From assembly GCF_003334405.1 (NCBI RefSeq), contig NZ_QOWM01000007.1: a DNA stretch of 64,000 bases; one strand, 5' to 3'. The notes under the pieces are model-generated. The model was given only the letters and a program-made list of their open reading frames with translations, was not told the DNA's origin and made no database searches. This document shows positions 9,679 through 13,127 of this stretch, piece by piece (position 1 is the stretch's first letter; the number at the start of each line of letters is the position of its first letter). The position numbers and the translations under genes are program-made. This DNA comes from Escherichia coli. Its GTDB lineage: Bacteria; Pseudomonadota; Gammaproteobacteria; Enterobacterales; Enterobacteriaceae.

Positions 9679-10011
9679 TCAGTTATCAGGCATTCTGGCC
9701 GGTGGAATAACCGCATTGGTGGCTTGCGCGTTGGCTTCGCTTTTTTCAACGCGCGAGCGCACCGAGCTGTCTTTGCGGAACACATCCCACGGCAGTAAAA
9801 GCGTGTCCATCACAGCGGTAAACGGCATATCGAGAATCGCCAGCGACTTAGTGCCCCAGTTGGTTTCATCGTCGCCAATCATGGTTGCGCTGGCGCGGGT
9901 GCCGGGATACGTTCCTTCTTTCCCTCCGGTATGGGACATCACGCTGGAGCATCCTCCGAGTAATGTCATTCCGCTGCATATCATGAACGCTAACAACACA
10001 TTTCTTATCAT
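9679..10011 (-). CDS. yidQ: Predicted lipoprotein YidQ (DUF1375)
   Basis: ORF 9679..10086 trimmed to MIRNVLLAFMICSGMTLLGGCSS... (110 aa); lipobox LLGGC. Confidence 0.8.
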   Translation of the reverse strand: MIRNVLLAFMICSGMTLLGGCSSVMSHTGGKEGTYPGTRASATMIGDDETNWGTKSLAILDMPFTAVMDTLLLPWDVFRKDSSVRSRVEKSEANAQATNAVIPPARMPDN

Positions 10012-10185
10012 AATAAATTCATCTGTTGATCGTGGGTGTTGGCCTGATGAGTTATAGCGATCCCTTGCTGAAAATAACATCATCATTACGTCGCACTGTG
10101 GCGGCTATCGCACTTTAACGTTTCGTGCTGCCCCCTCAGTCTATGCAATAGACCATAAACTGCAAAAAAAAGTCCGCTGATAAGG

Positions 10186-10214
10186 CTTGAAAAGTTCATT
10201 TCCAGACCCATTTT
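10186..10214 (+). promoter_or_regulatory. Sigma-32 heat-shock promoter of ibpAB
   Basis: CTTGAAA (10186-10192), 14-bp spacer, CCCATTTT (10207-10214), matching the sigma-32 consensus CTTGAAA-N13-15-CCCCATnT; about 100 bp upstream of ibpA. Confidence 0.65.
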
Positions 10215-10316
10215 TACATCGTAGCCGATGAGGACGCGCCTGATGGGTGTTCTGGCTACCTGACCTGTCCATTGTGGAAGGTCTTACATTCTCGCTGATT
10301 TCAGGAGCTATTGATT

Positions 10317-10730
10317 ATGCGTAACTTTGATTTATCCCCGCTTTACCGTTCTGCTATTGGATTTGACCGTTTGTTTAACCACTTAGAAAACAACCAGAGC
10401 CAGAGTAATGGCGGCTACCCTCCGTATAACGTTGAACTGGTAGACGAAAACCATTACCGCATTGCTATCGCTGTGGCTGGTTTTGCTGAGAGCGAACTGG
10501 AAATTACCGCCCAGGATAATCTGCTGGTGGTGAAAGGTGCTCACGCCGACGAACAAAAAGAGCGCACCTATCTGTACCAGGGCATCGCTGAACGCAACTT
10601 TGAACGCAAATTCCAGTTAGCTGAGAACATTCATGTTCGTGGTGCTAACCTGGTAAATGGTTTGCTGTATATCGATCTCGAACGCGTGATTCCGGAAGCG
10701 AAAAAACCGCGCCGTATCGAAATCAACTAA
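10317..10730 (+). CDS. ibpA: Small heat-shock protein IbpA (alpha-crystallin family)
   Basis: 137-aa [20 protein letters not shown]... recognised as IbpA; Shine-Dalgarno aggag at 10303-10307; the ORF-track start at 10311 is an upstream TTG. Confidence 0.95.
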
Positions 10731-10841
10731 TTCCCTAAGGCCGCCTGGCGCGGCCTGACATCTCCATGCTCGCCGTCAGGGAGCATATGCGAATCTTCGG
10801 ATTTGCAGGTACTTACTCGCTTCTTAGAAGGAGAAATGACT

Positions 10842-11270
10842 ATGCGTAACTTCGATTTATCCCCACTGATGCGTCAATGGATCGGTTTTGACAAACTGGC
10901 CAACGCACTGCAAAACGCCGGTGAAAGCCAGAGCTTCCCGCCGTACAACATTGAGAAAAGCGACGATAACCACTACCGCATTACCCTTGCGCTGGCAGGT
11001 TTCCGTCAGGAAGATTTAGAGATTCAACTGGAAGGTACGCGCCTGAGCGTAAAAGGCACGCCGGAGCAGCCAAAAGAAGAGAAAAAATGGCTGCATCAAG
11101 GGCTTATGAATCAGCCATTTAGCCTGAGCTTTACGCTGGCTGAAAATATGGAAGTCTCTGGCGCAACCTTCGTAAACGGTTTACTGCATATTGATTTAAT
11201 TCGTAATGAGCCTGAACCCATCGCAGCGCAGCGTATCGCTATCAGCGAACGTCCCGCGTTAAATAGCTAA
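10842..11270 (+). CDS. ibpB: Small heat-shock protein IbpB
   Basis: ORF 10803..11270 trimmed to [20 protein letters not shown]... (142 aa); paralogue of the adjacent IbpA. Confidence 0.95.
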
Positions 11271-11285
11271 CTAGCTATTCTCTTT

Positions 11286-11313
11286 GCCCCGCCATTCTGG
11301 TGGGGCTTTTTTT
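11286..11313 (+). terminator. Rho-independent terminator after ibpB
   Basis: gccccgcca-ttc-tggtggggc hairpin followed by ttttttt. Confidence 0.6.
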
Positions 11314-11465
11314 GTCTTACTTACTCAACAATGCGTTAAATTTCGACTGTTTAAGATATTTCGGCACGTTCTTTCCCGTGATAATGTGCGCTATAAGGCA
11401 AATCTGCTTCACCGATTCAGCCATAATCCGTAGCAATTAAAATGTTATCTCAAGAGAAATGGACG

Positions 11466-13127
11466 ATGAGTGATATAGCATTAACGGTCAGTATTCTGGC
11501 TTTGGTGGCAGTCGTCGGTTTGTTTATCGGCAACGTCAAATTTCGCGGCATAGGATTAGGTATTGGCGGCGTGCTGTTTGGTGGGATCATCGTCGGCCAT
11601 TTTGTTTCTCAGGCGGGGATGACATTAAGTAGCGATATGCTGCATGTTATTCAGGAATTTGGCCTGATCCTGTTCGTTTATACTATCGGGATTCAGGTAG
11701 GGCCGGGCTTCTTTGCCTCATTGCGCGTCTCCGGATTACGCCTCAACCTGTTTGCTGTTCTGATCGTCATCATCGGTGGTCTGGTTACCGCCATCCTGCA
11801 TAAACTGTTTGATATTCCACTGCCGGTAGTGCTGGGGATTTTCTCCGGTGCGGTTACCAATACGCCAGCGCTGGGGGCAGGGCAGCAGATTTTGCGCGAC
11901 CTGGGTACACCAATGGAAATGGTCGATCAGATGGGGATGAGTTACGCGATGGCGTATCCATTCGGCATTTGCGGGATTTTGTTCACCATGTGGATGTTGC
12001 GGGTTATTTTCCGCGTCAATGTCGAGACAGAAGCTCAGCAGCACGAGTCTTCACGCACCAATGGCGGCGCGCTGATCAAGACTATCAATATTCGCGTTGA
12101 GAACCCTAACCTGCATGATTTAGCCATTAAAGATGTACCGATTCTCAACGGCGACAAAATTATCTGCTCGCGTCTGAAACGCGAAGAAACCCTAAAAGTT
12201 CCTTCGCCAGATACCATTATCCAACTGGGCGATTTGCTGCATCTGGTGGGTCAGCCAGCGGATTTACATAATGCGCAACTGGTGATTGGTCAGGAGGTCG
12301 ATACTTCGCTGTCCACGAAAGGCACTGATTTGCGCGTCGAGCGTGTGGTGGTCACCAATGAAAACGTGCTCGGAAAACGTATTCGCGACCTGCACTTTAA
12401 AGAACGCTATGACGTTGTTATCTCGCGCCTGAACCGTGCCGGGGTCGAACTGGTCGCCAGTGGCGATATCAGCCTGCAGTTCGGCGATATCCTCAATCTG
12501 GTGGGGCGTCCGTCCGCAATTGATGCCGTTGCCAATGTGCTGGGGAATGCGCAGCAAAAACTGCAACAGGTTCAGATGCTGCCAGTGTTTATTGGCATCG
12601 GGCTAGGCGTATTGTTAGGTTCTATTCCCGTCTTTGTGCCAGGATTCCCGGCCGCGTTGAAACTGGGGCTGGCGGGCGGACCGCTGATTATGGCGTTGAT
12701 CCTCGGGCGTATCGGCAGTATCGGCAAGCTGTACTGGTTTATGCCGCCAAGCGCCAACCTCGCGCTGCGGGAGCTGGGGATCGTGCTGTTCCTCTCGGTC
12801 GTTGGTCTGAAATCTGGTGGGGATTTTGTGAATACCCTGGTCAATGGCGAAGGGCTAAGCTGGATTGGTTATGGTGCCCTGATCACCGCCGTTCCGCTGA
12901 TTACTGTTGGCATTCTGGCGCGGATGTTAGCCAAAATGAATTACCTGACCATGTGCGGGATGCTGGCAGGTTCCATGACCGATCCTCCGGCGCTGGCGTT
13001 TGCTAATAATCTTCATCCAACCAGCGGTGCGGCGGCGCTCTCTTACGCCACTGTCTATCCGTTGGTAATGTTCCTGCGCATTATCACCCCCCAATTACTG
13101 GCGGTGCTCTTCTGGAGTATCGGTTAA
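11466..13127 (+). CDS. yidE: Putative transporter YidE (aspartate:alanine exchanger-type fold with central TrkA-C domains)
   Basis: ORF 11442..13127 trimmed to [18 protein letters not shown]... (553 aa); hydrophobic halves flank a soluble middle region. Confidence 0.9.

Follow-up and report, generated by a model that had tools for sequence, protein, structure and literature searches.

Which elements control ibpA and ibpB in this stretch of Escherichia coli DNA, and what is the role of the GC-rich hairpin (H1) that separates the two cistrons? The ibpAB operon is a textbook example of layered heat-shock control: its expression depends on sigma-32 at the promoter, on RNA thermometers, on processing by RNase E, on feedback by IbpA and on proteolysis by Lon. 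Here we examine how these layers are laid out in the window (the whole stretch of 64 kb that was analysed) and which of them extend to H1. All positions are those of the window and the features are collected in Table 1.

The identity of the locus is clear. The first-pass annotation, which was made from the letters alone, had named the genes as ibpAB, and this was correct: E. coli genomes are 100% identical over positions 10100-11350 (5418 of 5426 genomes covered), and the RefSeq annotation of an identical E. coli stretch lists ibpA, ibpB and a ROSE feature. The sequence of K-12 MG1655 is identical over positions 10039-11439. The features that had been described were all found in place, including position 10841 as the last base before the ibpB ATG. 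The ibpA reading frame runs from its ATG at 10317 to the end of its stop codon at 10730, and with the ibpB ATG at 10842 this leaves an intergenic spacer of 111 nt. With a probability that we put at roughly 0.9, the control elements seen here are those of the small heat-shock operon ibpA-ibpB of E. coli and work as published. As such the control region is an already known and ordinary system, and the only novelty is the comparative support for H1.

Table 1. Regulatory and coding features of the ibpAB locus, in window coordinates.
Feature	Position	Strand	Details
Sigma-32 (RpoH) promoter of ibpAB	10186..10213	+	CTTGAAA (-35, 10186-10192), N13, ACCCATTT (-10, 10206-10213)
ibpA 5' leader (start inferred)	10219..10316	+	~96-98 nt; SL1 10221-10259, SL2 10262-10283, SL3 10291-10307
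ROSE_2 RNA thermometer (Rfam RF01832)	10251..10323	+	100.4 bits, gathering score 65, E = 3.8e-23, full-length; RefSeq ROSE feature at same place
Term-seq 3' end in ibpA leader	10262	+	3 nt past SL1; K-12 3867477, minus strand; PMC7815308
ibpA CDS	10317..10730	+	137 aa small heat-shock protein; ORF list, RefSeq, K-12 b3687
Contested sigma-54 promoter for ibpB	10652..10667	+	TGGTAAATGGTTTGCT; inside 3' part of ibpA; published
H1	10738..10756	+	AGGCCGC-CUGGC-GCGGCCU; 7 bp, 6 G-C, 5-nt loop; -12.8 kcal/mol; 7 nt past ibpA stop, without U-tract
H2	10766..10786	+	AUGCUCGCC-GUCA-GGGAGCAU; sequence nearly invariant; SD-like GGGAG paired to CUCGCC, bulged G
H3	10788..10807	+	UGCGAAUC-UUCG-GAUUUGCA; sequence variable among species, structure retained
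H4, ibpB SD hairpin, ROSE-like thermometer	10808..10841	+	folds; inner pairs conserved
Term-seq 3' end before ibpB	10841	+	base before ibpB AUG, end of extended H4 helix; K-12 3866898, minus strand; PMC7815308
ibpB CDS	10842..11270	+	142 aa; ORF list, RefSeq, K-12
Operon intrinsic terminator	11286..11313	+	GCCCCGCCA-TTC-TGGTGGGGC + T7; only terminator-like site in 9900-11500

Transcription of the operon is published to be under sigma-32 control (PMC8155344), with TTGAA / CnATnT as the consensus of this factor (PMC9866376). As a sigma-32 promoter we accepted TTGAA(A) at -35 followed, after about 13-15 nt, by CnATnT or CCCCATNT at -10, and this combination is present at 10186-10213. The -10 element ACCCATTT agrees with CCCCATNT at 7 of 8 positions, and the promoter as a whole differs from CTTGAAA-N13-CCCCATNT by a single mismatch. 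When up to one mismatch is allowed, the composite pattern occurs a single time in the 64-kb window, where chance alone would give 0.03 matches. Motif and spacing are identical in 55 out of 77 distinct enterobacterial leaders, and the other leaders show near-variants at the same position. A near-consensus sigma-32 promoter about 100 nt upstream of ibpA had been proposed at the outset; this is supported by the uniqueness of the motif in the window and its conservation among species, and 103 nt lie between the end of the -10 element and the ibpA ATG.

The transcript most probably starts around 10219-10221, which would give a leader of approximately 96-98 nt. That the start lies far upstream of ibpA follows from a published sense-strand 3' end located 55 nt upstream of the ATG. 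No sigma-70 promoters were detected in a scan of 9900-11500, and hence there is no sign of a competing housekeeping promoter near ibpA.

The ibpA leader folds into a structure in which the minimum free energy (MFE) and centroid solutions coincide (-34.4 kcal/mol, z = -2.70), and the three stem-loops SL1 to SL3 correspond to those published earlier (bioRxiv 10.1101/2020.04.20.050740). The inner stem of SL1 shows seven covarying pairs among 76 species. The Shine-Dalgarno sequence (SD) AGGAG occupies 10303-10307, 9 nt before the ATG, and is held in SL3: CUC-G-CUG (10291-10297) pairs with CAGGAG (10302-10307). According to the published definition, a ROSE-like element consists of two to four hairpins, the 3'-proximal one of which has the SD imperfectly paired to a U(U/C)GCU motif, and a small heat-shock gene lies downstream (PMC3669281). 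The ibpA leader contains each of these: UCGCU (10292-10296) pairs with AGGAG leaving G10294 bulged, there are three hairpins, and ibpA follows. The comparison loci were retrieved via a 19-mer of SL3, and the invariance of SL3 in this set is partly an artefact of that choice. The long structured leader with an SD and an RNA thermometer, as the first-pass annotation described it, is supported by the ROSE_2 match (100.4 bits against 65) and by a three-hairpin fold as published.

Folding at different temperatures is less telling. In the MFE fold the ibpA SD remains within SL3 from 20 to 50 C. Between 30 and 42 C the cost of opening the SD alone decreases from 4.1 to 3.7 kcal/mol, and that of opening the segment from SD to AUG from 6.9 to 5.1 kcal/mol; in a longer sequence context the mean unpaired probability of the SD does not increase with temperature. 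A comparison of 30 and 42 C folding had been suggested as a check on SD sequestration. The SD is indeed in a hairpin at every temperature, and the thermometer is not refuted, but the shallow drop in opening cost makes the check weakly informative. Because the effect of temperature is shallow and any hairpin weakens with heat, in-silico folding cannot prove thermosensing. Experimental demonstration that access to the ibpA SD depends on heat has been published (PMC3669281). According to the literature, the leader is also the site through which IbpA exerts negative feedback, and SL1 and SL2 support SL3 and influence the repression by IbpA.

Four hairpins, termed H1 to H4, make up the fold of the 111-nt spacer between the genes (z = -2.63; 4 out of 200 shuffles were as stable). 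The same four-hairpin layout was recovered independently in Escherichia, Enterobacter, Salmonella, Klebsiella and Mangrovibacter. H2 has invariant core pairs and covarying base pairs in its stem; this hairpin aligns, below threshold, with the first hairpin of the Rfam ROSE model. H3 shows compensatory changes at all seven counted pairs, and is missing from the Citrobacter freundii group. H4 holds the ibpB SD AAGGAG (10828-10833) by pairing CUC-G-CUUC (10816-10823) with GAAGGAG (10827-10833), and is extended by an outer helix between 10808-10810 and 10839-10841. Across 71 species its seven inner pairs show no change or hardly any. The cost of opening the ibpB SD drops from 7.0 to 5.3 kcal/mol between 30 and 42 C, and in the MFE fold the SD stays inside the hairpin throughout.

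The spacer scores below the gathering score of all ROSE models (ROSE 19.3 against 45, ROSE_3 18.5 against 43 and ROSE_2 15.2 against 65), and a wider Rfam scan gave no spacer match at E <= 1. Structurally, H2-H4 agree with the ROSE-like definition: the last of these hairpins keeps the SD paired to UCGCU (10817-10821) with G10819 bulged, and ibpB lies downstream. An RNA thermometer of ibpB has been published, as has the repression of ibpB translation by IbpA through the ibpB 5' UTR; the idea that ibpB has a leader of its own agrees with this. Among the candidates that were rejected, Rfam also matched H1 to a CRISPR repeat (14.5 bits, E = 3.4) and the spacer to RT-19, both of which we regard as noise. 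A possible leader peptide (a 20-codon ORF at 10786-10848 overlapping the ibpB start) was likewise dismissed: its ATG is present in 41 of 76 spacers and the frame is not conserved.

H1 is the part of the spacer for which the comparison adds most. The sequence GGCCGC-CTGGC-GCGGCC that had been pointed out lies exactly at 10739-10755, and its stem can be extended to 7 bp (10738-10756). In an alignment of 71 species 98.6% of the H1 cells are paired, and this value falls to 42-54% when the register is slid. Four of the seven pairs show changes on both sides in these species. Pair 4 is U·G in 28 sequences; on the opposite strand such pairs would read as A·C mismatches. The covariation observed was reached by 0 of 500 shuffles. 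Of 500 shuffled spacers, 13 contained a local hairpin as strong as H1, and the structures are clearly non-random because of the comparative evidence, the significance of the single sequence being modest. H1 was found in about 74 of the 76 distinct spacers, typically starting 6-7 nt after the ibpA stop (0 to 13 nt across species). It is missing in one species (L005) that has retained H2-H4, which shows that at least one lineage can do without the hairpin. The sub-threshold ROSE matches do not include it. A REP/BIME identity was discarded, as H1 is single copy in the 64-kb window even with up to three mismatches. Judged from the aligned sequences, H1 is a selected sense-strand RNA structure and not a terminator.

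The second half of this statement had also been put forward by the first-pass annotation, from the missing T-run, and it holds in every species compared. The 3' flank of H1 (GACATCTCC, tail GACAUCUCC) has no T-run, and in 75 species the longest run within 10 nt is at most 3, with no more than 4 T in the first 8 bases. A terminator scan of 9900-11500 did not call H1; its sole site is 11286-11306 followed by T7, after ibpB. In published Term-seq data from unstressed cultures (PMC7815308) no 3' end was recorded at H1 (K-12 3866900-3866999), and the mapped end within the spacer is 10841. Coordinates of these ends were converted from K-12 to the window and checked against the identical MG1655 sequence. 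Compared with intrinsic terminators, H1 thus shares the GC-rich 7-bp stem with a 5-nt loop located 3' of a stop codon, and differs by having neither a U-tract in any species nor a mapped 3' end; the true terminator is the one behind ibpB. There a Rho termination region is recorded as well (K-12 3866437, window 11302; PMC7815308). Rfam matches at the terminator (Hrs1, anti-hemB, PrrF and GcvB) were well below threshold and reflect generic terminator resemblance.

The 3' ends that were mapped coincide with the two thermometers. The end at 10262 is covered by 52,389 reads, lies at -55 from ibpA and carries a 'Yes' flag, which we read as Rho-dependence; the end at 10841 is listed for two growth conditions, with 76,140 reads in one and 27,317 in the other (PMC7815308). 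Closed thermometers may be coupled to Rho termination or to exonuclease trimming at these two positions, leaving stable leader fragments. Published ends at both thermometers hint at a link between translational gating and RNA decay in ibpAB.

Processing of the operon mRNA has been described before. According to papers that cite Gaubig et al. 2011, the bicistronic ibpAB mRNA is processed to monocistronic RNAs with involvement of RNase E. The Salmonella TIER-seq tables contain no entry for ibpA or ibpB. A study of RNase III reports that induction of ibpA is lower in an rnc mutant and reports no cleavage in the locus. Inspection by eye of the single-stranded linkers gave no full match to the RNase E motif RN|WUU. 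As a separate observation, the junction between 10841 and 10842 carries the key U at +2 of that motif.

Taken as a whole, the published elements would work together as follows. RNA polymerase with sigma-32 would start at the inferred position 10219-10221, produce one ibpA-ibpB mRNA and end at 11286-11313. In the cold the weak SL3 would block ribosome binding; heat would loosen SL3 and allow binding, and IbpA would add feedback through the leader. For ibpB, H2-H4 in the spacer would provide another control unit of ROSE-like type, whose final hairpin holds the SD in the way that SL3 does. H1 is a separate, evolutionarily maintained stem-loop just past the ibpA stop and has no role as terminator.

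What H1 does in this model is less certain. A role as processing or stability element, as the first-pass annotation suggested, is plausible. The form that we tentatively favor, at somewhat below even odds, is that of a passive protective boundary: during RNase E processing or decay of the bicistronic mRNA it would shield ibpA from 3' exonucleases or cap the ibpB segment, and it would keep the spacer tightly folded. Inter-cistronic stabilisers of this kind, which act in selective RNA processing and stabilisation, are known from the malE-malF REP hairpins and from the operons puf and pap. Like such hairpins, H1 is a stable GC stem-loop of conserved structure that lacks a U-tract and sits right behind the upstream cistron of a processed operon mRNA. 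Unlike the malE-malF REP hairpins it is single copy and not a REP element, and Term-seq of unstressed cells shows no 3' end at H1. As strong ends are seen at 10262 and 10841 and none after H1, the hairpin is not the dominant 3' boundary in unstressed cells. It is possible, albeit doubtful, that H1 is a distinct, structure-only sense-strand module maintained across Enterobacteriaceae outside the thermometer, and that it determines how the two halves of the mRNA, ibpA and ibpB, fare relative to each other.

Other explanations attach H1 to neighboring functions. It might belong to the control unit of ibpB itself, forming with H2-H4 an array that is recognised by IbpA or stabilising the thermometer, much as has been proposed for SL1 and SL2 in the ibpA leader. 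Such an arrangement would fit the published support of SL3 by SL1 and SL2, their effect on IbpA repression and the repression of ibpB by IbpA via the 5' UTR; moreover, H1 and SL1 are each the most stable and 5'-most hairpin of their own array, and H1 is conserved together with the remaining array. We nevertheless consider it unlikely, given that the sub-threshold ROSE matches start at H2, that L005 has H2-H4 without H1, and that H1 is conserved in structure only: its loop and several stem positions vary, a poor fit to a sequence-specific protein site. H1 might also be a translational insulator, a clamp that stops ribosomes ending ibpA from unwinding the ibpB thermometer and prevents coupling or re-initiation. 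The stem usually begins 6-7 nt past the stop codon, which in ribosome footprints is the edge of the terminating ribosome, and both genes are gated by an SD hairpin of their own. With approximately 97 nt already separating the stop codon from the ibpB SD, however, insulation by a hairpin is hardly needed, and the narrow spacing to the stop, which ranges from 0 to 13 nt across species, may reflect shared ancestry. This makes the insulator improbable in our view.

The resemblance of a GC-rich 7-bp stem directly after the stop codon to a terminator raises the question whether H1 reduces transcription into ibpB, either as a pause hairpin or as an intrinsic terminator that is weak or a relic. Duplication of ibpA in Enterobacterales gave rise to ibpB (PMC6834283), and H1 could then be what is left of an ancestral ibpA terminator. 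A U-tract is found in 0 of 75 species, however, the terminator scan made no call, and Term-seq gives no 3' end at H1 despite strong ends elsewhere in the locus; the compensatory changes point to ongoing selection for pairing instead of the decay of a relic. We regard a terminator origin as quite improbable. Very unlikely is the notion that the spacer is mainly the leader of an independent sigma-54 transcript of ibpB, with H1 as its 5'-proximal hairpin. A sigma-54 promoter has been reported at -185 to -168 from ibpB, with a ChIP-PCR signal in an overexpression strain (PMC2831329) and is cited in reviews (PMC8155344), but genome-wide sigma-54 ChIP-seq gave background signal only and called the ibpB promoter misannotated (PMC4591121). 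Since the motif is situated within conserved coding sequence, its conservation is uninformative on promoter function; within the spacer itself, no acceptable match to TGGCAC-N5-TTGCA was found by eye. Finally, a chance palindrome without function could be argued from the 13 of 500 shuffles mentioned above. It is effectively refuted by the presence of H1 in nearly all distinct spacers, where its pairs have undergone compensatory and wobble changes, and by a degree of covariation that none of 500 shuffles attained.

Compared with the systems described before, the ibpA thermometer is the same element as the E. coli ROSE-like thermometer (RF01832; Waldminghaus et al. 2009), identical to K-12 and without difference. 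The ibpB thermometer and the multilayer control of ibpAB (Gaubig, Waldminghaus and Narberhaus 2011) match, as far as the citing papers describe them, in the ROSE-design SD hairpin, the processing and the repression by IbpA; the spacer differs from the Rfam ROSE models in scoring 15-19 bits against cut-offs of 43-65. The increment to this picture is small: in about 75 species H1 is selected as an RNA structure and is no terminator. This makes H1 a clean mutational target for differential expression of the ibpA and ibpB cistrons.

The region under study comprises the ibpA upstream control region, the ibpA gene and the ibpA-ibpB spacer. Positions 10100-11350 match many E. coli chromosomes at 100% identity and are found in 5418 of the 5426 complete genomes; 10039-11439 equals K-12 MG1655 at every base. 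RefSeq lists here yidR, yidQ (on the opposite strand), a ROSE feature (an RNA thermometer class), ibpA, ibpB and yidE. All sequence statements of the first-pass annotation hold at their positions, and it correctly recognised a known system: earlier publications cover the promoter, the ROSE thermometer of ibpA, the thermometer of ibpB, mRNA processing and feedback by IbpA. The sole increment over published knowledge appears to be the comparative evidence on H1, the GC hairpin among the four hairpins of the spacer (H1-H4).

Features of the ibpAB region (SL1-SL3, hairpins of the ibpA leader; SD, Shine-Dalgarno)
Feature	Position	Strand	Description
sigma-32 promoter	10186; 10206-10213	+	CTTGAAA from 10186, 13-nt gap, ACCCATTT at 10206-10213; from sequence
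SL1	10221-10259		leader fold at 37 C
SL2	10262-10283		leader fold at 37 C
SL3	10291-10307		leader fold at 37 C
ibpA SD	10303-10307		AGGAG, 9 nt 5' of ATG
ibpA	10317-10730		RefSeq
claimed sigma-54 promoter for ibpB	10652-10667		TGGTAAATGGTTTGCT; within the ibpA coding sequence, outside the spacer
H1	10738-10756		GGCCGC-CTGGC-GCGGCC at 10739-10755; 7 bp with 10738 and 10756; followed by GACATCTCC
H2	10766-10786		GCUCGCC-GUCA-GGGAGC
H3	10788-10807		spacer fold
H4	10816-10833		closed by outer helix, 10808-10810 with 10839-10841
ibpB	10842-11270		RefSeq
terminator-like site	11286-11306		followed by seven T; after ibpB; only one in 9900-11500 (scan)

An exact search with the 19-mer of SL3 in one genome per species yielded 86 loci, about 77 of them with ibpA, and 76 distinct spacers. 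Pairs were counted in an alignment of 71 sequences scored against the E. coli structure. In H1, pairing holds for 98.6% of cells; changes on both sides are seen at four of its seven pairs (G-C to A-U or C-G; C-G to G-C or U-A) and no pair is invariant. In addition, the fourth pair is U·G in 28 sequences and the first pair is G·U in ten. Since such pairs become A·C mismatches on the opposite strand, what is selected is the sense RNA rather than palindromic DNA. The same alignment shows compensatory changes at 7/7 pairs of H3, a nearly invariant sequence for H2 and an invariant one for H4. For the spacer structure as a whole, none of 500 shuffles reached the observed pairing or covariation, and pairing fell from 94% to 42-54% when the partners were shifted by 1-3 columns. 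The same four hairpins also emerged when single sequences from Enterobacter, Salmonella, Klebsiella and Mangrovibacter were folded independently. By these comparisons the structure of H1 is under selection, and it lies outside the thermometer-like part of the spacer; matches to the ROSE models begin at H2. In the literature accessible to us (a coverage that leaves out Gaubig et al. 2011) we found no comparative evidence on H1 as a conserved, structure-only, non-terminator hairpin.

Variation of the spacer across species is modular. Among the 76 distinct spacers H1 is absent in Enterobacter sp. BIGb0383 and weak in one other (L079). In nine loci of an Enterobacter clade (Enterobacter/Lelliottia) an extra stretch of about 28 nt lies between H3 and H4, structured inserts of 40-130 nt occupy this site in two Citrobacter loci, and the Citrobacter freundii group has no H3. 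The ibpAB sequence of a genome labelled Chryseobacterium sp. 18061 is nearly identical to that of Citrobacter sp. 18056, which suggests contamination or mislabelling. The SL3 19-mer also matched five non-enterobacterial contigs without ibpA (three from Prevotella, one from Christensenella, and L067); about two chance matches are expected by estimate, and three in Prevotella are odd.

H1 is not a terminator. The first-pass annotation had pointed out that it has no T-run, and this extends to 75 species: no T-run within 10 nt past the stem exceeds three, and the first eight bases include no more than four T. Moreover, Term-seq of unstressed K-12 cultures (PMC7815308) shows no 3' end in K-12 3866900-3866999, the place expected for an H1 end. 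A Rho termination region is recorded at K-12 3866437 (window 11302), in the 3' arm of the terminator hairpin after ibpB; therefore read-through beyond the operon terminator appears to be Rho-sensitive.

Concerning the role of H1, we tentatively favour (with a probability of about 0.4) a passive protective or boundary element in an mRNA with known processing. The lack of a mapped end at H1 argues against H1 as the principal 3' boundary when cells are unstressed, as does the 3' end found at 10841 instead. Competing explanations are that H1 is a disarmed ancestral terminator, that it insulates translation, or that it forms part of an IbpA-responsive array.

Strong RNA 3' ends are present at both thermometers in unstressed cultures (PMC7815308, supplementary files 1 and 3); ibpA is not discussed in the text of that paper. 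The end at 10262 (K-12 3867477; 52,389 reads) lies 3 nt past SL1 and bears a 'Yes', which we interpret as a flag for Rho-dependence. The end at 10841 (K-12 3866898; 76,140 and 27,317 reads in two growth-condition sheets) is the base preceding the ibpB AUG. Based on these positions and the Rho flag, closed thermometers would leave the transcripts untranslated, and untranslated ibpAB transcripts might undergo Rho termination or downstream cutting, followed by trimming back to stable leader structures. The two ends suggest that stable leader fragments remain after untranslated mRNA is terminated or trimmed.

The 111-nt spacer forms four hairpins in which 66 nt are paired (-40.4 kcal/mol, z = -2.6). 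H4 has the same design as SL3: CUC-G-CUUC is paired with GAAGGAG, G10819 is bulged and the SD AAGGAG is masked. The long leader proposed for ibpB agrees with the literature, according to which this 5' UTR also holds an RNA thermometer. This second element has no Rfam annotation, and the spacer alone scores below threshold (ROSE 19.3, ROSE_3 18.5, ROSE_2 15.2 bits). The ibpB element works like ROSE and has its defining motif, yet its model scores fall short of membership. H2 likewise sets an SD-like purine run against a pyrimidine run with a bulged G, and it aligns, below threshold, with hairpin 1 of Rfam ROSE. A 20-codon ORF at 10786-10848, directly after H2 and overlapping the ibpB start, is improbable as a leader peptide: its ATG occurs in 41 of 76 spacers and the frame is not conserved.

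At 37 C the ibpA leader forms three hairpins (-34.4 kcal/mol, z = -2.7), in agreement with the published description of a heat-sensitive third stem-loop that masks the SD, with two others upstream of it (bioRxiv 10.1101/2020.04.20.050740). Rfam ROSE_2 matches over its full length at 10251-10323 (100.4 bits, cut-off 65), so the structured leader ending in the SD indeed fits the known thermometer. In SL3, CUC-G-CUG pairs with CAGGAG, G10294 is bulged, and the ROSE signature U(U/C)GCU (PMC3669281) is present. Across 76 species the SL1 inner stem shows compensatory changes at seven pairs and SL3 is unchanged, partly because the loci were retrieved with the SL3 19-mer itself. The design of SL3 and H4 is also seen in SL2 (CCUGUCC-AUUGU-GGAAGG), where an SD-like purine run faces a pyrimidine run with a bulged G.

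Folding from 20 to 50 C, with the coordinates of the first-pass annotation, places the ibpA SD within SL3 at all temperatures (minimum-energy fold). Between 30 and 42 C the cost of opening the SD drops from 4.1 to 3.7 kcal/mol in ibpA (SD-to-AUG stretch: 6.9 to 5.1) and from 7.0 to 5.3 in ibpB (8.2 to 6.2). The isolated SD hairpins are weak at 30 C (ibpA -5.7, ibpB -6.6 kcal/mol), and within a longer sequence the ibpA SD shows no increase in mean unpaired probability with temperature. The folds thus do not give the result that the first-pass annotation named as a refutation, a free SD at low temperature; the predicted heat effect is shallow, however, and any hairpin weakens with heat. Nearest-neighbour models treat the non-canonical ROSE pairs poorly. 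Functional proof of the thermometer comes from published reporter and probing work.

The sigma-32 promoter placed about 100 nt upstream of ibpA stands: with one mismatch allowed, the composite pattern matches once in the 64 kb against 0.03 expected. In other Enterobacteriaceae CTTGAAA-N13-ACCCATTT is found at the same place in 55 of 77 distinct leaders, 103-110 nt from -10 element to ATG, with recognisable variants in the remainder. Because the -10 element of E. coli ends 103 nt before the ibpA ATG and the start is placed 6-8 nt past it, the leader would measure about 96-98 nt. Indirect support comes from the sense-strand 3' end at 10262, 55 nt 5' of the ATG (PMC7815308): it requires a start farther upstream, and yidQ on the opposite strand lies between ibpA and the next upstream gene on the same strand. 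A promoter scan found no sigma-70-like promoter in 9900-11500. The claimed sigma-54 promoter of ibpB served as a ChIP positive control in one paper (PMC2831329), whereas later genome-wide ChIP-seq gave background signal only and termed it misannotated (PMC4591121).
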